The notes under the pieces were generated by a model. The model was given only the letters and a program-made list of their open reading frames with translations. It made no database searches and had not been told where the DNA came from. Shown piece by piece: positions 1,140-52,739 of a stretch of DNA of 64,000 nucleotides. The stretch covers positions 32,001 to 96,000 of IMG/VR virus record IMGVR_UViG_3300005663_000033; one strand, given 5' to 3'. The stretch is from a virus. The position numbers and the translations under genes are program-made. Every line of letters starts with the position of its first letter. Position 1 is the stretch's first letter.

Positions 1140-1504
1140 CTCTCTTCGATTTTTTTCATCTTTTTTGTCGTCCTATAAAGCGATTGATACAGGCGTTCAG
1201 AAAGGGGCACCCCCTTGTTTAATAAGGCGGGGGACTAGGTGAGAAGGAGTGTATGCGTTTTCTTGTAGGGCATGGATTTTTGGAGCCTAGTATGCCTAAA
1301 CCCCCGGCGGTTATCGGACCTAGCCGAGTTATCGGACCATCCTATATTACCGGCCCACCCCTTAGCCCAGATTTATCGGACCATCTCAGCTAGACATGTT
1401 ATCGGACTATCTTGCATGACATGCAAGGGGAGGTTATCGGACCTATCCTCCTCGCACCCGAACCCTCTTGAGTTATCGGACCAAAAGTTTTTCTTCTCGA
1501 TTTC

Positions 1505-1533
1505 TTGCCTTCGCGCCGATTGTATCCTAGAAT
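1505..1533 (+). promoter_or_regulatory. Sigma70-type promoter
   Basis: TTGCCT-17bp-TAGAAT upstream of the RBS and ORF at 1578. Confidence 0.65.
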
Positions 1534-1577
1534 ATATATGACATGACAACGCACACGACAAACAACGGAGAAAAAAG

Positions 1578-1691
1578 ATGAAACTACTTATCGGACTAAC
1601 GCTTACTGGAATCATCGGCTCTTGTGTTATCGGACTACTCATCAACGCCTACTCCTGGATTGAAGCATCGCTTCATTCAGTAGGCCTTTAA
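1578..1691 (+). CDS. Small hydrophobic protein (37 aa, MKLLIGLTLTGIIGSCVIGLL...)
   Basis: GGAG RBS, ATG, one hydrophobic segment; below the ORF-track length cut-off. Confidence 0.55.
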   Translation: MKLLIGLTLTGIIGSCVIGLLINAYSWIEASLHSVGL

Positions 1692-1702
1692 GGGAGAGAA
1701 TC

Positions 1703-1792
1703 ATGGCGACTATTATTATCGGATGTGCGGCAATGGTGGTTATCGGAGCGGTATGGTTGTGGTCTGTATTATCAGACCTTGAGGGGCTATAA
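1703..1792 (+). CDS. Small hydrophobic protein (29 aa, MATIIIGCAAMVVIGAVWLWSV...)
   Basis: GGGAG RBS; tightly packed between neighbouring ORFs. Confidence 0.5.
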   Translation: MATIIIGCAAMVVIGAVWLWSVLSDLEGL

Positions 1793-1794
1793 CA

Positions 1795-2052
1795 ATGGAC
1801 AAGACACTGGTGAAATATCGGACACTAGGCAGCAAATTTAACAGTTACGCTGTAGTACCTACCCTGTTCTTATCGGGCCTACTCGATTGGCTGAAGTTAT
1901 CGGAATGTGCGACGATCATCTCTACGACCGATAACTATCAGCGGATTCTCCGACAATCTGAGTTATCAGACCTAGCCGCTCCTGAATCATGGCCGAGTTA
2001 TGGGCAGTGTAAAGGTTACATTCTCGCTGTAGACATGCTGGAGTGCCGATAA
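1795..2052 (+). CDS. Hypothetical protein
   Basis: GAGGGG RBS; part of a packed + strand operon. Confidence 0.6.
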   Translation: MDKTLVKYRTLGSKFNSYAVVPTLFLSGLLDWLKLSECATIISTTDNYQRILRQSELSDLAAPESWPSYGQCKGYILAVDMLECR

Positions 2053-2276
2053 TGTTTGGACAAGCTAAACTTGAAATACCCACAAGCGGTAATATCGGAC
2101 CTTCCTGTACCACCGGATTATCAGACCAACTAGCTATGACTATCGGACGTACAGCAGCACGCACGTTATCGGAACAAGATGGGTATGTTGTAGTGACACT
2201 TGAATCAGGATCGGTTCGTGTTATCGGCTATAATACGATCCACGACAAACTCGTTATCGGACGTTTAACCATTTAA
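2052..2276 (+). CDS. Hypothetical protein
   Basis: ATG overlaps the stop of the upstream ORF (TAATG). Confidence 0.55.
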   Translation: MFGQAKLEIPTSGNIGPSCTTGLSDQLAMTIGRTAARTLSEQDGYVVVTLESGSVRVIGYNTIHDKLVIGRLTI

Positions 2277-2287
2277 GGAGCGATAAG

Positions 2288-2644
2288 ATGAGAAACAGAG
2301 TTATCGGACAAACAGGCACGGTGGTGTTATCGGACGATTCGATCTTCCGTAGTAGATCACACAAACGGACCTTGCGCTACCAGTACCTAAAAGTACAGCA
2401 CGGCTGGATTGCGTGGATTTGCGGACCTTTCCATTCTCGGACCTACGGGGTTTGTAGTTTTGGGACCAGAAGAAGGTCGGCTAAAGCAGCACTTGCAACT
2501 CGCCTCGCAAACGATTATCGGTACTTAGGCAATCTAATGTTCTCGGACGTTGATGGGTCCGATACTGTAGGCAAGACCGATGCGCAGTTATTGGACGAAA
2601 CGACGATCAATCATCCGATAATGAGCGAATTGCTAGGCGTGTAG
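2288..2644 (+). CDS. Hypothetical protein
   Basis: AAGGAG RBS; 118 aa. Confidence 0.65.
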   Translation: MRNRVIGQTGTVVLSDDSIFRSRSHKRTLRYQYLKVQHGWIAWICGPFHSRTYGVCSFGTRRRSAKAALATRLANDYRYLGNLMFSDVDGSDTVGKTDAQLLDETTINHPIMSELLGV

Positions 2645-3176
2645 TTATGGGGCGCGAAACCGTTTTCTGGATTAAAACCATACTGTACGCAGGTCTTATA
2701 ACTGTGGCAATGTGGTAAAGATTATGGGACCGGCGACATGCGCAATCGTTGGTCCTATAACTTTGCGCCGACCTTTGTGTTATGGGACGTTGAGCCGTGA
2801 GCGATTATCGGGCCTAAGTATAAACTAGTTTACCCTGTGTGTATTGTCCCATAATACATCGGTTTATGGCGCAAAAACGCCATTTCTTATCGGAAATCAC
2901 TTATAAGACGACTTTTTTATCGGAAAGGGTAGATAACTTCGCGGTTTTTAGCTTTTTCATGGTTATTGGACCCCATATTAGGACTAGCATAACCTGTATT
3001 ACAGGACTTTCCGATAATATCGTGGATTTTGAACAAATAACAGGGTTTTTATAGGCAAACGACCGATATGTGATCTCAAAAAGCGGACTTTGTTACAATT
3101 GCAGATTATCGGTCTAAGTGCGATAATATCGTGGATTAGGGTCTCTAGGCGCGGAAAAGTTTTTTCGGATTATACC

Positions 3177-3205
3177 TTGACGGCGTATATAACTAAGCCT
3201 ATAGT
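3177..3205 (+). promoter_or_regulatory. Near-consensus sigma70 promoter
   Basis: TTGACG-17bp-TATAGT. Confidence 0.7.
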
Positions 3206-3567
3206 ATTATGTAAGAAGAAAAAAGAGAAGCAAAAAACGGACCTTTAGGGGTTTACCTAATGAAGTCGTAAACGAAAAACGGACGAATGATTGTGGTTAG
3301 GTATCTCCGGCATTGACACAATAGGCCGTCGTGTCAAGTGCTCTACGTGGCGTATGTACCGCACGGGGAATTGTAGGGAGCGCTACCGATAGTTCCCGGG
3401 GGTATCTAACCGTTGTCATTCCGATGACCCGCAAGGGTCTGATAATAAGTGACCGGCGCAACGTCGGTCCGAATAAGGGTTTCAGTACGTTACTACTTGT
3501 CCGTCCCATAACGGGACGGAGTAGTCTCGGGCATGGGACGGGCGATAACCTTGCAAGGGGAATCGTT

Positions 3568-3879
3568 ATGTCTAACAGTGCCACTGGAACGATTGTCGAG
3601 TTTGAGTCTGCGACTTTCAAGACCAACGCCGCGATTTATCGGGCGAACAAACGCATGGTCGACGCCGCTAGTCGATACGACAGTGTCGATGACGCAAAGG
3701 CCGGTCTTGATGCAGCGTGGAAAGTTCTTGAAGCTCAGGTTGAAAATGGGTCGGGTTACACTCCCGATTCCAAGCTGGGCTTTGGGTCCGACAATGCCAC
3801 CGTGATTGCCGAGAGTCTGCTCGGTCGTCGCAACAGTGTCGGCGCAACTCGTAAGTCGTTCAACGATCTGGGCAGGTAG
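3568..3879 (+). CDS. Hypothetical protein (MSNSATGTIVEFES...)
   Basis: AAGGGG RBS before the ATG at 3568; the upstream part of the track ORF (from 3331) is hairpin-rich and looks like a leader. Confidence 0.65.
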   Translation: MSNSATGTIVEFESATFKTNAAIYRANKRMVDAASRYDSVDDAKAGLDAAWKVLEAQVENGSGYTPDSKLGFGSDNATVIAESLLGRRNSVGATRKSFNDLGR

Positions 3880-3884
3880 AGTGT

Positions 3885-5275
3885 CTGACGCACCGCGCCT
3901 CTAGCGAAGATAGTCTTGTATAGGCTATGTTTATAGGCCGTTAGGGGCGCGTAACGATGGACATTCTGACTTAAAGTCAGGATTGAATCGCTTGGTAGGG
4001 TAGCACCCTATCGTTATAGGTCCACTATCTAGGATCAGCGGTTCCCATAACCAACCATAGCGGGAGGTCCGATACGCATCGGGTATTCCCGGAAGAGGTT
4101 GGGTAGTAGTCCGATAGTCGCCGTAGTAGGGTCTATAAGCGCGCAGGACGTGCGCTAATGGGTCTCAACCGGAGTCAACGGTTATCGGTCGAACTCCAGT
4201 CTTGAGAAGCGACAAAACGTAGAGTCCAGAATGTGGGCTCAGTCTACGCCCGTAGTACGTGGACGGGATAAGTGACGGATCGTCTACACGATTCCTTGTA
4301 TGTCTGGCAAAGGGTCTTGGTACAGCGCCGAGGCAGCTAGACAGAAAAGGGTAGGTCGTGTTAATCATTTTACGGTCCTTCATGGTAATACGTCTATCGT
4401 TTTGGGGTAGGCTTTCTTTTTGTCGTGGGATAGGCATTTCCAAGGGCAAGTCCTGTAAACTCCGTCACAACAATTTCTTTCGCAAGGGTCTCTCGGGGTA
4501 TTGCTGATAGTTCGAGGGGTCTGAGGTTAGAATGTGGCGCGGTTCACGATCTTGTCGGTTAAGTCTTAGATTGGCACGCAACGGGTATTGTGTGTCCAGT
4601 CTCTGTTACTATTTTGCTGAACGACACGACACGACGGACGGGTTGAATAAACTGGTTCATTGCACTGGCGCAACAGTCTCGGCTCGATTAGTCGTTAAAA
4701 TAAGGATACTAGAAACTGTCCTGGGAAAACGGATAGCCAGATTTCATCTGCCAGGGCATTATCCGCAAAAAGCAGTGGTAGGACCTACGGGTCGGGAAGT
4801 CGTGACGATGGGCTGCATAGTCGTCAGTCACGATGGACAAGTTAGGTGGGTTGGCTTGTCAACTTTTTTGATGGCATATCATTATGGGCTGTGGAGTTAG
4901 CAAAGGGAATAATATGCTGGAAGTTAATCCCTGTAGGGATGCATCTTGAGTTGTCTAGCGCAAGACAATGATTGAGCTTATGGCATATCCCGGCGGGTGA
5001 AAGACGAATCTCTCTTTGTAGGTATCGCTAAAACTACAGGGGTACGATTCGTGGAAAGTCCTCCGATCTAATAGACGGGGGAGGTATTTATGAAGCCACA
5101 CTTGGCGCTACAGCCTGTAATGATGTGTCATCATTCGTGGCGCGTTGTCGAGAGATGGCGCGTCGCATTTGTTTATGGGCGAAGGCAATCCTCGTTGTCG
5201 TGTCCCGGAGGCGGAGCGCGGAGGTTAGAGGTAAACCAGCCGTATAACGCCACGCCATAGATGGGATGGGTTCCA
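3885..5275 (+). ncRNA. Candidate large structured non-coding RNA region
   Basis: No convincing RBS-led ORF. Consecutive hairpins, many with G-U pairs that work on the + strand, e.g. CGCGCCTCTAGCG/CGTTAGGGGCGCG (3895-3951), TCTGACTTAAAGTCAGGA, AGCGCGCAGGACGTGCGCT, GACCTACGGGTC, GACAAGTTAGGTGGGTTGGCTTGTC. Confidence 0.55.
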
Positions 5276-5281
5276 CAAGGA

Positions 5282-5360
5282 AAGCCAGTAGCTCAATTGG
5301 TAGAGTAACTCCAGCCCATGGGCTCGGGGTAGGTTGTGGGTTCGAGTCCCACCTGGCTTT
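5282..5360 (+). tRNA. tRNA-like element with a 13 nt anticodon loop (no assignable anticodon)
   Basis: Acceptor AAGCCAG/CTGGCTT, D-arm GCTC-AATTGGTA-GAGT, T-arm GTGGG-TTCGAGT-CCCAC; the anticodon stem ACTCC/GGGGT encloses AGCCCATGGGCTC. Confidence 0.75.
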
Positions 5361-5452
5361 TTAGGGAGGGCAATAGTGGGAGTTGGATTTTGCAGCCCAA
5401 CAGCGCCGGATTCGGTGGGGTTTCCGGTACACTTTTTCTTTAGGAGATTGCG

Positions 5453-5722
5453 ATGCTGTTGATAATCAATGACACCGATCCGGTCAGCGAAAAGCACCTA
5501 TCCTGGAATATAAAAAGAACGGTAGGCGAGCGTTCGAATGTTCTTAGTTTGTATGAAATAGTCGAAGTCACATACAAACACCCAGACGCCGATGAATTGA
5601 CAATTCAGGTTATAGAGTCAAAACTGATAGACTCGGCCTGCGTACTGTCAAGCAAGGCGGCTTTGTGGATTTTGTTAGAGGCTGCATTTACGGCTATCAG
5701 CACAGACCGGGTGATAGCTTAG
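5453..5722 (+). CDS. Hypothetical protein
   Basis: TAGGAG RBS; 89 aa. Confidence 0.65.
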   Translation: MLLIINDTDPVSEKHLSWNIKRTVGERSNVLSLYEIVEVTYKHPDADELTIQVIESKLIDSACVLSSKAALWILLEAAFTAISTDRVIA

Positions 5723-6566
5723 ACAAGAGGAATTCCGATACACTTTTTCTTGTAGGGGAAATAAAATGACAGTAAAAAAACTCATCGTGGAACTTCAAAA
5801 GCATCCGGACCACTACAAGGTAGGAATTTACTGCTACGCTTGCGGCGAGGAAGGCAAGACAGAGGTTATTGAAGCAGAATCTTCATTATTTGACGGGAAT
5901 GAAGGTATAGTCACGATCTCAACCTTCTAGCCCAGTCATCACCCCAAAACAACTCCTTTTTCGTAGGGGAAAACTGTGATGGTTCAACCCGCTATCATGT
6001 TGGCCACAGTCCTTTTAGCTCTCATTGCGATCGTCGCAATGTTTGTAACCGTGGGCAGTATTTTATACTTGTTGTGGAAAGGACGCAAAGGATAGGTTAT
6101 CGCCCCACATCTACTAATCACCCTCTCCAAGAAACTATCCGGGATTTTTTATGAACTTTCCGGGGTTTTCTGATTAGTCCAGGTACTTCAGGGGTCATTA
6201 GAACGTTTGCATATTTATGCAAGTGTATTACTATGCCTTTGAACCAGGTGCCTGCCAAAAACGCAGCTAACCCTTCGCCCACGCTCTTTCTTACTATTAA
6301 GGTGTTTGCTCTATAGGGGGAGTAGTTGGTAAAACGGTACAAAAACACGCCTTACGTGGTCAAAAACACGGTTGCGAAGCACTGCGAGTCGGTCGTCGGG
6401 TCTAAGCCAGTTTGGCCTGTATCTGTTTCTATATACGATTTTGTAGGCTAAATGGGACATATAGCGAGTGGTGGGACGGAATGGTATACAGGGCGCTAGG
6501 TACGAAATTTGTATCTGATTTCTTGAATCTTGTAGGCTAACGTCCTGTTATCAAAAGGGGTACAAA

Positions 6567-6866
6567 ATGTTTTCAGGGTGTGAATTGAATGAATGCGGCC
6601 ACACTCCGGATGGATTACGAGTGCGGGCTATTACGGATGCGATGGGCGCTCAGGTGGTAGTGACCAACGATCTGGAGCCGGACAAAGACAGTCTATTAAC
6701 CAAGCCGCTAGAGAACCATAAAACGGCAATAGTGCTGGGGGAATCAGTAGCTAGAAATGGCATCTCCGTATACGAGGGATGGAGAGGGCCAATCGGGACA
6801 GTATTCGAATTCGTCGAAGTGATGGCTCACGACTATTTGAGAAAACGAAACGGCCACACGAAATAA
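6567..6866 (+). CDS. Hypothetical protein
   Basis: Stereotyped leader AGGGGTACAAAATG. Confidence 0.7.
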   Translation: MFSGCELNECGHTPDGLRVRAITDAMGAQVVVTNDLEPDKDSLLTKPLENHKTAIVLGESVARNGISVYEGWRGPIGTVFEFVEVMAHDYLRKRNGHTK

Positions 6867-6907
6867 AGTGACGATGATTATCGTCCTTTGTTTAAGGGGT
6901 ACGAAAA

Positions 6908-7105
6908 ATGGATTTACTTGGTGGTGATCCGAAACTTGAAGACGCGGTAGAAAAATTACTGGCGGAAGCAACCCGTCGCGGAGACGAATGGCGAGCGATA
7001 GCCGCAGGAATAGAAGCTCAACACGAACGGGAAAGAAAACAACTCGCCCGAACTCACGCTAGCCAGTTGACCAATCGCTATATAGAGTGGAAGAAGCAAA
7101 CCTGA
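6908..7105 (+). CDS. Hypothetical protein
   Basis: Leader AAGGGGTACGAAAAATG. Confidence 0.65.
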   Translation: MDLLGGDPKLEDAVEKLLAEATRRGDEWRAIAAGIEAQHERERKQLARTHASQLTNRYIEWKKQT

Positions 7106-9972: not shown

Positions 9973-10660
9973 CTGCGAGAATTTGCTAAAAGTACCCGTC
10001 TATATAAGACCTCGTGGCGCGAATCAATTGTCTCTTCAAAAGGAGTACAAAATGCTAACACCATCTATAGGAACCTTTGTAAAAATCATTGACGGTAGAA
10101 TCGGTGTGATCGTAGGCAACGAACACAGCGGTGGGGTATTCCGTGGGCACTGCAATGTGTGGTTTGGGATGTGGTCCGCAATTACAGGAGACAGACGAAC
10201 CTGTCAGAGTCTCTATTGTAGGGGTGACACGCCGCGCACAGAACATTTGCTGGTGACTGATGATTGGACAGTAGTCGAAACGCCCGTCGGTTGTATTATC
10301 CTGTAAACATCTCGCTAAAGAATCTTAGCTCTAAGGGGCAAGACGATGAAGGTGTGGTTGATAATAACTGCGGCAATATGGCTGGCGTATGGAATAGCCG
10401 TATTTGTCACAGCAAGAGGGCTTAAGGTGGGCTATGAGGTCTACAAGATACAGAACACATCTGATTGGTCTGGCCAAAAACCTACCGTAATCATAACTGA
10501 AAATGACCCAGGTTGGGAAGAAGCACATGCGCGATGGTTAGATATGAAAAACCCAACCGATAGTCCTGAGTGGAAAAAAGGTGTTATTGCTATCACAAAA
10601 AGAAAAGAAGGTCCGACAAGTGGTTAATGTTGCCCAAGACAACACCAGGAGGATTGAGTT

Positions 10661-11143
10661 ATGAACGTAAGAGACTTTGAGTGTAGGTCATATGAGCAGG
10701 CGGTGGAGTTGCTCGGGGACAAGGACCGACTGACGGTAGGTAACAATACCATGTTGTCACGCGATTCCGTCGACTTTAGCGTAAATGTCGTATTGCACGG
10801 GCAAGACATCGTTTGGTTCCATAGAGACGGACGGGTCGTACTTGATTCTTGTGGGTATCGGACGGAACCCACAAAGGAACGGATCAATAGGTGCCTGCCT
10901 ACTCCTTGGCAATTATGCCAATCTAAAGGGGTGTGGGCCTTGTGGAGATGGGACTTGGAACAGGAGGTGCCGTTTGTGGATGGTATGACAGTACCGGGGA
11001 CGGGGCCGAGCGTGAATCCCCACAATGAAGCACAGGATACGGGAACGAATCTCTGCTCTGAATGTCGCGTGGAGGAACACGACCAGTGTCCTATGACTCC
11101 AGGATGCTCTTGCTGTGCCAATACAGCATTAGAGGGGGAGTGA
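10661..11143 (+). CDS. Hypothetical protein, paralogous to the N-terminus of 30591-31331
   Basis: Shared NNT...LH..D.V....DG...L...G.RT..TK.R.N pattern. Confidence 0.7.
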   Translation: MNVRDFECRSYEQAVELLGDKDRLTVGNNTMLSRDSVDFSVNVVLHGQDIVWFHRDGRVVLDSCGYRTEPTKERINRCLPTPWQLCQSKGVWALWRWDLEQEVPFVDGMTVPGTGPSVNPHNEAQDTGTNLCSECRVEEHDQCPMTPGCSCCANTALEGE

Positions 11144-47786: not shown

Positions 47787-48614
47787 ATGAGTAGTTTTGT
47801 GACTGAGCCAAGAGTCGAATTGATAGGAAAACCAATAATCGAAATCGATGGGGTAATGAGATTCCTCAACGAACACGATTATGATTGGTCAGAATTTACC
47901 GATAAGCTTGAGTCAATGATTAGTCTTGGTGACGACGATGGTGAATGGCTTGTTGAATTCGCAGGTCGTATGTGTTATCAAAGTTGGCCCAAATGTGGTG
48001 AAAAATCAAAAGGTAGAAAACACGAAGATCACGTCAAACATTTGATTGAAGTTGGACATGGAGCGGCAATTGAACATTCCACGTATACTTTTGCTATTTG
48101 GGATGTTTCTCGCAGTTTAACTCATGAATTGGTCCGTCATCGAATTGCATCGTATTCACAGTTGAGTCAACGATATGTTGATTCATCCAGTGTCAGATTT
48201 ATTGTCCCACCAGCTATGCAGGAATTGGAAAAAATCGATCCCGATGCTTACAGAGCATGGATTGAACATTGTGAACGATCAAGGCAATTATACGAGGAAT
48301 TGACGGCTAAGCTGTCTGATATGTACGGGGATACTGAGAGTAAACTTGAACGTAGGAAGAAGGCTCGTCAAGCTGCACGTTCTGTGTTGCCAAATGCTAC
48401 CGAAACTAAGATTATCGTAACAATGAATGCTAGAGCGGTGCGACATCTAATTGAGTTACGAGCCAATCCCGCAGCGGATGTTGAAATCAGAAAGTTGGCC
48501 GTCAAGATATGCCGTATTCTACAAGATAAAGCTCCGCTGTTTGCGCATGGTCTTGGTATTGTAAAATTGCAAGACGGAACAGAGGGGGTTGAGTCTAAAT
48601 ACAAAAGAGTGTAG
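47787..48614 (+). CDS. thyX: Flavin-dependent thymidylate synthase
   Basis: GH.A.IEH, SR..THELVRHR.ASYSQLSQRYV, AR.VLPNA.ET, EIR.LA. Confidence 0.95.
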   Translation: MSSFVTEPRVELIGKPIIEIDGVMRFLNEHDYDWSEFTDKLESMISLGDDDGEWLVEFAGRMCYQSWPKCGEKSKGRKHEDHVKHLIEVGHGAAIEHSTYTFAIWDVSRSLTHELVRHRIASYSQLSQRYVDSSSVRFIVPPAMQELEKIDPDAYRAWIEHCERSRQLYEELTAKLSDMYGDTESKLERRKKARQAARSVLPNATETKIIVTMNARAVRHLIELRANPAADVEIRKLAVKICRILQDKAPLFAHGLGIVKLQDGTEGVESKYKRV

Positions 48615-48917
48615 TATGACGACATTTTGCGCCAACAATCTAGGAAAGATTAAACAGCAGCCCTTTCAATGTTCTGTGTGTGAGCAGACATTTACTGTTG
48701 AAGCCAACCTTGATTTTGGTGCTGAAGAATGTCCAAAGTGTGAAAAGAATCTTCGCACCCTTGTTTGTAGATTTATCAGGCTGGTTATAACTGGAAATCC
48801 TGATGGAATGTCTTTGAATGATATTTTGTGTATTCTTGGGAGGGATGAAGTTAAACGGAGAATTATGTCATATAAGATTTACAATTAGAAAATTACAAAG
48901 TAAAATCAAAGATTTGT

Positions 48918-48957: not shown

Positions 48958-49848
48958 ATGCCTATGCTTGAACTGGCCTTAGATGAATTCGAAACATATA
49001 TCCGCACGGAGCTTGGTTTATCCAAGGAGACGCTTTCGGCGTATCTCAGAGATGCAAGAGAATTTCTTGATTTTATCGGGATACAAAAATTGACCGCCAA
49101 GTTAATAGAAGAATTCGTTAGTCATCTGCGCGGGCGGGGACTTAAGCAAACGACAATCCGGCGAAAATACATGTCTGTTAGATGTTTGTGCCATCACCTC
49201 ATCAGCCGTGGTGGTCTAGATCCGAATATTCTCGGTATGGTTGATTCAGTTCGTATAAACAGGAGAACGCCAGATGCATTGGAACATGAAGCTGTGGATG
49301 CCCTTGTGGCTGCTGTGGAAAAACGTGCACCCGTATACAGAGCAACTAACGTTCGCAGGGATGTCGCTATTGTATTGACGCTATATCACAGCGGACTTCG
49401 AGTGTCCGAATTATGTAATATGAATTTGACTGATGTGAACCCAACCCGAAGAGAAATAAGGGTGAGAGGAAAAGGTAGTCGCGATCGAATAGTCCCAACC
49501 ACACATAGGTGTATAAAAGTAATTAGCGATTATTTGGACTTAGATCGTAATTCTGATACGGATGCGGTATTTGTTAAGTCTGATGGTCAACGAATAACTC
49601 GCCGTGCTATTAGTGATATGTTGATGTCCCTTTCTCGTCGAGCAGGTGTAAAACACACCACAGCCCATATGTTACGAAGAACTTGTGCCACATCCCTCAT
49701 GAATAGTGGTGTAGATTTGGAACTTGTACAGACAATGCTCGGCCATAGACACTTATCAACAACGCAAGCATATTTGGCTGTTAGCTATAATCGACTTGTG
49801 GATGTTCATAGGCGATGTCATCCTTTTGGAGAAGAGTATGAAGTCTAG
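48958..49848 (+). CDS. XerC/XerD-like tyrosine recombinase
   Basis: SAM-like N-terminus (GLS.ET..AY.RD); catalytic R (SGLRVSEL), K (GKG), HxxR (HMLRR), H (LGH), Y (TTQAY). Confidence 0.93.
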   Translation: MPMLELALDEFETYIRTELGLSKETLSAYLRDAREFLDFIGIQKLTAKLIEEFVSHLRGRGLKQTTIRRKYMSVRCLCHHLISRGGLDPNILGMVDSVRINRRTPDALEHEAVDALVAAVEKRAPVYRATNVRRDVAIVLTLYHSGLRVSELCNMNLTDVNPTRREIRVRGKGSRDRIVPTTHRCIKVISDYLDLDRNSDTDAVFVKSDGQRITRRAISDMLMSLSRRAGVKHTTAHMLRRTCATSLMNSGVDLELVQTMLGHRHLSTTQAYLAVSYNRLVDVHRRCHPFGEEYEV

Positions 49849-51893: not shown

Positions 51894-52739
51894 GTGGGGT
51901 TGGATATGACTCAGTCGATAATAGGAATATGCACTATATTGCTTTGTTTACTATCTGCGGGTACTGACTGTATAATCAGTGAAGAAAAGTCTAATGTCGT
52001 ATCACCAGTAATTGATAAACCAGTAATTGATAAAATTGAACTTAAACAGAAAGAGATGCGAGACACAATAGTGCTCGTAAAGACACGTCGTGGAAGTGGT
52101 TCTGGAACCATTATAGATCGCATAGATATCGACATTGAAAACATATTCGAATATCGTATACTAACTAATGCACATGTAGTTCATTCAAGATTCTTTAGAT
52201 ATTTACGAGGTGTTAATTCTTTAACAGGAAAAATAAAAACCGAAGTTGTTGACACTGGTTGTGAAATTATTACATTTGATCATAAAAACCAAAAATGGAA
52301 CAGCTATGTTGTAGATATTGTCTCAGAAGATGTAGCACTTGACTTGGCAATTTTATCTTTTGTGTCAAATAAGGAATTAAACGTAGCAAAAATAGCTAAC
52401 GATGACATGTTAAAACAAATTCGTGTTTTTGATGAAGTTTTTGCTATTGGTTGTCAGCTTGGACAGGCTCCAAGTCCAACAACTGGTATTGTATCACGAA
52501 TTCTGACGGGAACTCACAATAAACAGAAATGGATAGTTTATGGAAGTACTACACAAATTGTTCCAGGTTCTAGCGGTGGTGGACTATTTAAGGAATATGA
52601 TGATCATTATTATTTGATAGGTATTCCATATCTCGCTGCCATAACTAATAGTGGTCAATTTGTATCGCATTTATCATCAGCCATTTCTGTTGTAACAGCA
52701 AAAAACTTTATTGATGAAAACTCGGTGTGCAATGACTAA
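51894..52739 (+). CDS. Trypsin-like serine protease with N-terminal signal/anchor
   Basis: GSG, LTNAHV (His), DLAIL (Asp), PGSSGGGLF (Ser). Confidence 0.88.
   Translation: MGLDMTQSIIGICTILLCLLSAGTDCIISEEKSNVVSPVIDKPVIDKIELKQKEMRDTIVLVKTRRGSGSGTIIDRIDIDIENIFEYRILTNAHVVHSRFFRYLRGVNSLTGKIKTEVVDTGCEIITFDHKNQKWNSYVVDIVSEDVALDLAILSFVSNKELNVAKIANDDMLKQIRVFDEVFAIGCQLGQAPSPTTGIVSRILTGTHNKQKWIVYGSTTQIVPGSSGGGLFKEYDDHYYLIGIPYLAAITNSGQFVSHLSSAISVVTAKNFIDENSVCND

Follow-up and report, generated by a model that had tools for sequence, protein, structure and literature searches.

A Conserved, Strand-Biased Field of Putative Xer Half-Sites over the First Early Operon of a Large Uncultured Phage

Introduction

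Several mobile elements exploit the dif/Xer system of their hosts, among them the integrative mobile elements exploiting Xer (IMEX) CTXphi, VGJphi and TLCphi and the plasmid elements cer and psi. These known elements borrow whole dif-like sites for integration. Here we describe a viral locus that extends this kind of exploitation, as it appears to hold a new arrangement, an array of one arm of such a site. It was found in a 64,000-nt stretch, called the window in the following (bases 32001-96000 of the single 113,443-bp viral contig IMGVR_UViG_3300005663_000033, with a CheckV completeness of 68%); positions refer to the window unless stated otherwise. The element in question, termed the motif field, spans positions 1311-3130 (+ strand) and comprises 26 copies of TTATCGG, 11 perfect copies of TTATCGGAC, and variants of these words, mostly on the + strand, all of which look like half-sites of the XerC-arm type.

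Like dif and the IMEX, the field uses a host Xer sequence, the XerC-type arm, on a mobile element, and sister phages (clade A, see below) have full dif-like cores. The field differs from these systems in that it consists of dozens of isolated half-sites without the partner arm or the 6-8-bp centre, mostly in one orientation and many of them inside genes, and thus provides no substrate for recombination.

Two reports describe half-sites that act without recombination. A XerD or Cre monomer bound to a half-site halts FtsK 3-5 times better from its outer face (PMC2800217). In Bacillus subtilis, Smc-ScpAB is unloaded by XerD at the half-site-like XerD unloading sites (XDS; Karaboja et al. 2021, as described in PMC11840125), and this SMC motor is also blocked by an artificial array of XDS. 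As described there, the XDS bind XerD, occur singly and lie in the host terminus, while the arm repeated in the field is of the XerC type, is located on a phage and is dense over 2-5 kb. The stoppage of FtsK offers a rationale for the polarity of the field, since a single monomer on a half-site acts as an orientation-dependent roadblock; it was observed in vitro for XerD or Cre against FtsK, whereas we deal with a XerC-type arm on phage DNA and propose RNA polymerase as the enzyme affected.

Two further classes of repeated sites are comparable. The stoperators of Cluster A mycobacteriophages are asymmetric sites of the 13-bp class that are bound by a helix-turn-helix (HTH) immunity repressor and silence transcription. 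They resemble the sites described here in being asymmetric, numerous in each genome, oriented with transcription and in part located in genes, but they are spread over the whole genome (about 20-35 sites), whereas the field occupies one 2-5 kb stretch and matches a recombinase arm. When we looked for stoperator-like features, 88% of the sites were oriented with transcription and sites were present in and upstream of the early operon; no repressor was identified. Iteron origins (lambda ori inside gene O) and centromeres (F sopC, 12 x 43 bp) likewise consist of repeated binding words that are partly coding and helically phased. In contrast to them, the field has no adjacent initiator or partition genes, its spacers are irregular and its copies are far more numerous. 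Our literature searches turned up no account of isolated Xer half-sites spread in one direction over 2-5 kb and running through phage genes, and to our knowledge no such field is known.

Results

The perfect word TTATCGGAC matched 11 times in the window, always on the + strand and between positions 1311 and 2335, while shuffled sequences gave 0.56 matches (maximum 3). The whole contig holds 12 perfect copies, 11 of which belong to the field. For the heptamer TTATCGG, 33 matches were counted in the window versus 7.4 expected, and 26 of these lie inside 1311-3112 (22 on the + strand, 4 on the − strand); contig-wide the count is 43. The degenerate word TTATNRGAC matched 30 times versus 4.7 expected, with 24 matches inside 1170-3511. 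R-TTAT-N-R-GAC-S-T was the best degenerate consensus for the field sites. Depending on the strictness of the word, one site occurs per 40-130 bp across 2-5 kb. The sequence-only reading of this DNA had reported about 26 heptamers and 11 perfect words within 1.8 kb, mostly on the + strand; both the counts and the strand bias are confirmed. A nucleotide search against known phages gave no match, and a tRNA was the sole match in an Rfam search.

Ten related viral loci were obtained via the 118-aa protein encoded in the field; these relatives share ancestry and are not independent samples. All ten have the field at the syntenic place, where 23-117 sites are counted over 2.6-5.4 kb if one mismatch is permitted. 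The density of TTATNRGAC on the + strand reaches 7.8/kb inside the fields versus 0.07-0.12/kb outside, and its strand count in the fields is 299 on the + versus 39 on the − strand, which places about 88% of the sites on the coding strand. As the field is unique in the genome and conserved in 10/10 relatives, neither of the two findings that the sequence-only reading had named as speaking against it, a motif equally frequent over the genome or missing at the syntenic position in related phages, was obtained.

Within the field the word is read in all three frames, as IG, LSD/LSE or YR, in five small genes. For the 118-aa gene, we aligned the codons, took the columns with a conserved amino acid and compared codon use between those in sites and all others. 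Single-codon use was 0.90 in the sites and 0.59 elsewhere (Mann-Whitney p=1.5e-5). The frozen codons within sites were GTT for Val (7/7), TTA for Leu (9/10), TCG for Ser (9/9) and GAC for Asp (8/8). The distances between sites in the field and its relatives, which share ancestry, peak at 25-26, 33-36, 45-48 and 55-58 bp, corresponding to a period of 10-10.5 bp (Rayleigh p ~2e-9) without mod-3 bias. The spacing had been described as irregular, which is correct, but it is not random. Since codons are frozen in the sites, the spacing is helical and a mod-3 bias is absent, double-stranded DNA, rather than protein or RNA, is indicated as the object of selection, in agreement with the earlier proposal that selection acts on the DNA and not on the protein. 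The field offers a clear example from nature of a protein code overlaid by a DNA code, with codons frozen among relatives that have 40-60% protein identity.

The field is located at the switch of GC skew and gene direction of the contig, which fits the earlier statement that it starts at the point of transcriptional divergence. In all relatives it opens in the same order: a conserved element, two sites 18 bp apart, more sites, a palindrome, one site and a promoter. The conserved element (1247-1269, + strand; ..GTGTA..GAAAAGTTGTAGG-like) lies left of the first site. The six perfect copies that had been noted upstream of the rightward promoter were found in non-coding DNA at 1311-1481 (+ strand), and the first two are 18 bp apart. 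The array begins about 200 bp upstream of this promoter. The palindrome, an inverted repeat CTTGCATG-A-CATGCAAG at 1411-1427, lies between two sites and reads CTTGCnn-GAC-nnGCAAG across the relatives, with compensatory variation at the inner stem positions. The early promoter (1505-1533, + strand) is sigma-70-like, with TTGCCT-17-TAGAAT in this phage and TTGCaT-17-TAtAAT in relatives. The last upstream site ends 23 nt before the −35 hexamer, and this distance is 22-24 nt in most relatives, where it is filled by a T-rich tract. Downstream of the promoter, the first early operon (1578-2644, + strand) consists of small genes for 37, 29, 85, 77 and 118 aa (open reading frames 1578-1691, 1703-1792, 1795-2052, 2043-2276 and 2288-2644), and sites are written through them. 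A second non-coding block with degenerate sites (2720-3205, + strand) contains a terminator-like hairpin at 2866-2883 and ends with the promoter-like sequence TTGACG-17-TATAGT (3177-3205, + strand).

To find out what the word is, we searched the literature with the 9-mer, which mostly returned primers; the useful leads were the dif sites of Myxococcales and the att site of an integrase. The XerC arm of dif in Myxococcus and Anaeromyxobacter is (A/G)GTCCGATAA (PMC2731167), and the att site of the Rhizobium etli recombinase IntA is TCCGATAA-N7-TTATCGGA (PMC4928290). Because of these leads, Planctomycetota genomes were scanned for GTCCGATAA-N6-TTATG. This pattern was present in 62 of 151 Planctomycetota genomes, nearly always once in each, compared to 4 of 151 for a reversed control pattern, and it was absent from all 61 Verrucomicrobiota genomes. 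The dif-like site GTCCGATAA-N6-TTATG(TT..) has a left (XerC-type) arm whose reverse complement is TTATCGGAC, with a match of 9/9. The Planctomycetota sites resemble dif in central regions such as TGTATC and TATATA and in right arms that include TTATGTTGCGT; TGTCCG also occurs as a central region. They are solitary, with no arrays around them. In one Planctomycetota genome (G177; contig 1, 3.9 Mb) about 45-85 kb separate the site, at 2.906 Mb, from the terminus, where the skew switches from + to − at ~2.95-2.99 Mb; the opposite switch at ~1.1 Mb (origin) is about half a genome away from the site. The GC skew of this genome is very clean (±0.12-0.23), and dnaA maps to 2.707 Mb, a long way from the origin indicated by the skew. 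The single-copy Planctomycetota site is dif-like and very probably dif itself, its terminus position being backed by this one clean genome. We infer from this site that the host of the phage is a planctomycete.

Other identities of the word were considered. A Chi- or KOPS-type host word is excluded, because the word was not enriched elsewhere in the chromosomes of five genomes of the Planctomycetes-Verrucomicrobia-Chlamydiae (PVC) group (three Planctomycetota, one Verrucomicrobiota and one Lentisphaerae). A DnaA box has only TTAT in common with it.

No partner arm was present in the flanks of 293 sites, and searches of the field and its surroundings in this genome, in a 96% complete relative (G003) and in 9 further loci revealed no complete core (inverted arms with a 6-8-bp centre). 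Inverted pairs or a complete core were also absent beside the phage xer gene described below. As the partner arm is absent, the field itself is not recombinable. By its sequence, the field is best described as a conserved, strand-biased array of presumptive single Xer-type half-sites. This identification had not been visible to the sequence-only reading.

The phage encodes a XerC/XerD-like tyrosine recombinase of 296 aa (48958-49848, + strand) that retains the R, K, HxxR, H and Y catalytic residues (R-K-H-R-H-Y set intact) and lacks an arm-binding domain. It scored 223 bits with the XerD model and 219 bits with the XerC model, both under the equivalog cut-offs, and among solved structures it is closest to XerC-like, XerA and XerD proteins. 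Orthologues with 51-77% identity were present in 7/7 other genomes of its clade (clade B) that were tested, or 8/8 with this genome, and in the near-complete members tested the gene is located 20-60 kb downstream of the field and its product is catalytically intact. The phage Xer is therefore a core gene of the clade and a candidate for a phage-encoded binder of the sites. Other candidates were rejected: the arm-binding domain of planctomycete integrases has no homologue in the phages, and AlbA_2/HATPase_c_4 regulators are absent from the phage, their own arrays being partly coding for MSDK repeats. A 99-aa zinc-ribbon protein is encoded just upstream of the xer gene (48589-48888). For its relatives in clade A, one motif site precedes the −35 element of their TTGCAy-17-TATACT promoters by 19 or 39 nt, and in one clade-A phage the zinc-ribbon gene adjoins an integrase.

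We scanned IMG/VR for two copies of the word 5-35 bp apart. This yielded at least 118 loci, of which at least 57 had four or more copies; the top count was 22 among the matches listed. A permuted control 9-mer gave 46 loci, almost all with two copies. The XerC-arm words of E. coli (7 loci, pairs only) and B. subtilis (16 loci, pairs or plain tandem repeats) do not form such arrays; their matches are no more than expected by chance or belong to simple tandem repeats. Three groups can be distinguished among the multi-copy loci: clade B, which includes the phage described here, clade A, and a group with a fixed four-site module.

Clade-A genomes (40-98 kb, GC 42-59%) have one or two intergenic motif clusters and hardly any proteins in common with clade B. 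In 4/5 of them an exact complete core, GTCCGATAA-6 bp-TTATG.., lies inside the half-site cluster, and in the fifth the left arm of the core carries one mismatch. Half-sites on the + strand come first as one block, and a block on the − strand follows. Four of the five core-bearing genomes lack an integrase. The cores (L044:5045-5466, L118:9467-9746, L038:5038-5293, L083:549-724 and G008 contig 10279-10697) are embedded among 6-17 extra half-sites, often with a second cluster 3-4 kb away. Clade A may consist of tailed phages that use the host XerCD for integration at dif or for the resolution of multimers; both are candidate functions.

BLAST and hidden Markov model (HMM) clustering revealed no DNA-binding protein common to the motif-bearing phage groups. 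The proteins recovered across groups were a membrane trypsin-like protease, a DUF5664-like protein, zinc-ribbon proteins and HNH homing endonucleases. The membrane-anchored protease (51894-52739) has low similarity to proteins of nine clade-A phages, and in three of these nine the protease gene itself holds a pair of motif sites.

The 118-aa protein (2288-2644) belongs to a family with at least 223 metagenomic homologues, several of them on 160-181-kb contigs, and without a Pfam domain. Its motif-encoded N-terminus VIGQTG..LSD is conserved, although it is modelled as disordered. The structure model shows an alpha-beta-beta-beta-alpha core, with a predicted local distance difference test score (pLDDT) of 86-96 for residues 30-80. 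The resemblance to dsRBD or HicB folds is weak and non-significant (Foldseek E ≥0.05; VIA Z up to 5), and with such a fold we rejected the protein as an AP2-like binder.

Discussion

The sequence-only reading had proposed a polar, high-density zone for the loading of a protein. This general idea is supported by our data and may now be given a protein class, while two of its variants are not. A partition site was suggested, but no match to ParB_N (PF02195) or AAA_31 (PF13614; ParA-like) was found across the 113 kb examined of the 68%-complete genome; a packaging signal is disfavoured by the position of the terminase and portal genes at contig 1.4-6.9 kb, which is 27-32 kb from the field.

We favour, with a probability of about 0.38, that the field is a Xer-loaded roadblock or insulator over the early operon that shuts off or gates early transcription. 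This reading is preferred because the array starts at a fixed distance from the promoter, extends over exactly the first operon (or operons) and points in the direction of transcription. Each site would be bound by one monomer, either of the phage Xer, made after the early genes, or of host XerC, or of both, and the bound monomers would form a head-to-tail nucleoprotein array. Such an array could act, without recombination, as an orientation-dependent roadblock or insulator on the early promoter and operon at the strand switch, and its first candidate function would be to shut off or gate early transcription once phage Xer accumulates. RNA polymerase starting at the promoter would meet the inner faces of the monomers, while motors coming from the right arm would meet the outer faces.

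Several observations weigh against this reading. The early promoter is near consensus, so that an activator is not needed. A block to RNA polymerase by a bound Xer monomer would be an extension of the precedents, which concern FtsK and Smc-ScpAB. The phage Xer is 31-35% identical to both planctomycete Xer paralogues and equidistant from them. Only 2/34 motif-bearing viral records encode their own recombinase; because most motif-carrying phages lack one, a phage-encoded binder cannot be general, and we rejected the phage tyrosine recombinase in that role. The proposed host follows from the dif-like site as its one line of evidence, and in five Planctomycetota genomes other than G177 tests of local skew and dnaA distance were uninformative or negative: the skew of one (G137) is flat, the ±20-kb flanks of the site in 6 genomes show no flip, and the dnaA distances do not correspond to half a genome. 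Finally, the contig is 68% complete, and a core site could sit in the missing part.

The same array might instead be directed against motors other than RNA polymerase. A Xer-bound array could stop or unload SMC-family extruders (Smc-ScpAB, MksBEF/Wadjet) or FtsK-type translocases and thereby protect or insulate the phage genome. We regard this XDS-like barrier as possible, although unlikely. The strong polarity, the helical phasing and the high density of the sites fit it, and so do the blocking of Smc-ScpAB by arrays of XerD half-sites, as described in PMC11840125, and the orientation-dependent stoppage of FtsK by recombinase monomers on half-sites (PMC2800217). If host XerC binds, no phage gene would have to be expressed, which suits the phages without a recombinase. 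However, the known unloading of SMC involves XerD and the XerD arm, not a XerC-type arm, and a motor barrier leaves the fixed position relative to the promoter unexplained.

With 30-117 half-sites in each genome copy and one dif-like site in the host, the field could also titrate host XerC and so disable dif recombination or Xer-dependent rivals such as IMEX, as a means of taking over the host. The location of the sites in the first-expressed region and the lack of enrichment of the motif elsewhere in host chromosomes are compatible with such a sponge. Titration, however, requires neither strand polarity nor helical phasing nor a fixed promoter geometry, and it is doubtful what a lytic cycle would gain from blocked dimer resolution. 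In addition, XerC alone usually binds its own arm weakly. We therefore hold a role as XerC sponge to be improbable.

An equally improbable alternative is that the field is a replication origin or another element with a binder unrelated to Xer, and that its likeness to a dif arm is coincidental or reflects a shared DNA-binding fold. It lies at the switch of GC skew and strand, and direct repeats, a palindrome and a T-rich tract precede a strong promoter, in a layout similar to that of the lambda origin. Arrays of the word also occur in unrelated contexts, such as the intergenic arrays of Bacillaceae described below. On the other hand, no initiator gene was recognised among the open reading frames neighbouring the field, and no DNA-binding protein was found in common between the phage groups that carry the word. 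The exact 9/9 match to the arm of a dif-like site present once per genome, together with the cores in sister phages, is hardly due to chance.

The half-sites may also serve as accessory arms that assist a Xer synapse, with multimer resolution, inversion or integration as its purpose, on a core at another place or in the 32% of the genome that is missing. Clade-A phages do embed a dif-like core in blocks of + and then − sites, and the phage recombinase has all catalytic residues. However, no core turned up at or close to the field in this genome, the 96% complete relative and 9 further loci, nor beside xer, and a one-directional array of 2-5 kb through coding DNA is unlike known accessory regions, which makes this option slightly less probable again. 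Lastly, a signal at the RNA level, with UUAUCGGAC in early mRNAs being bound or cut by a protein such as the dsRBD-like 118-aa product, would agree with the 88% of sites on the sense strand and with the weak dsRBD/HicB likeness of its core (Z up to 5), but it is hardly credible in view of the six perfect sites upstream of the conserved promoter, the spacing that tracks the DNA helical repeat, the occurrence of both orientations in intergenic clusters of other phage groups and the non-significance of the fold matches.

Returning to the roadblock over the early operon, one dif arm copied dozens to >100 times in a polar and helix-phased manner suggests a structural or roadblock use, which so far has been shown only for XerD at XDS and for the stoppage of FtsK in vitro. 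Rather tentatively, the one-orientation array of dif half-sites in ~165-kb Planctomycetota phages, recruiting Xer as a polar roadblock or decoy, may be a new functional class. If this is true, the array would stop or unload RNA polymerase, SMC/Wadjet complexes or FtsK, or would neutralise host Xer; it would be the first natural viral array of Xer half-sites and would add a non-recombination role for a phage tyrosine recombinase. For the abundant uncultured ~165-kb phages, the data name a probable host phylum, the Planctomycetota, and a probable protein class, the Xer recombinases.

Additional Observations

Downstream of the field, two words on the opposite strand (GTCCGATA; 4067-4117, − strand) start at 4067 and 4109, 42 bp apart. 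The pair is conserved in 8 relatives, lies ~1.8 kb downstream of the 118-aa gene in predicted stems, and may be a boundary of the field or merely part of an RNA. It is surrounded by a hairpin-rich non-coding region (3890-5270) that is strongly conserved at 4010-4200 in 8 relatives and is probably structured; no Rfam family matched this region.

A multi-copy NUMOD4/HNH/HTH homing-endonuclease family is represented at 308-787 (− strand), at 112319-112867 of the contig (G000) and several times in the 96% complete relative; the copy adjoining the field (159 aa) appears truncated. The large terminase (contig 3572-6940, − strand) has 1122 aa with an inserted HNH/helicase-like segment, which could represent an intein or the insertion of a homing endonuclease. 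Of the long related contigs, several have an end 1.4-5 kb away from the field, while one record with direct terminal repeats (DTR) does not.

A scan of prokaryotes for triple copies of the word gave many ordinary tandem repeats, and for this reason it was not counted as evidence. Planctomycetota contigs were frequent among the triple-copy matches listed. Six Planctomycetota loci (L171, L141, L183, L192, L194 and L237) have 3-6 direct copies of GTCCGATAA with variable spacers between a terminator hairpin and a divergent gene for a ~500-aa tyrosine recombinase; in L171 the copies are at 5256-5308, the recombinase gene is at 5348-6943 and the hairpin follows rho. The ~500-aa recombinase has an N-terminal domain of the beta-sheet type and only a weak match to Phage_int_SAM_1.

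Genes for Schlafen AlbA_2 + HATPase_c_4 + winged-helix proteins in several phyla end in or precede arrays of the 9-mer (L172:6704-6756, L187:6041-6127, L173:5548-5604 and L221:7810-7997). MSDK/MSDN linker repeats are encoded by some of these arrays, with a period of 12 bp, and others are non-coding with a period of 11 bp. In Bacillaceae, intergenic arrays of TGTCCGATAA have an exact period of 21 bp and unrelated spacers, and each follows a terminator hairpin (L142:1631-1870, L168:6542-7898 and L124:3106-3177; in the Neobacillus chromosome in one region, 3.83-4.21 Mb). They resemble protein-binding iterons and may be unrelated to the phage field.

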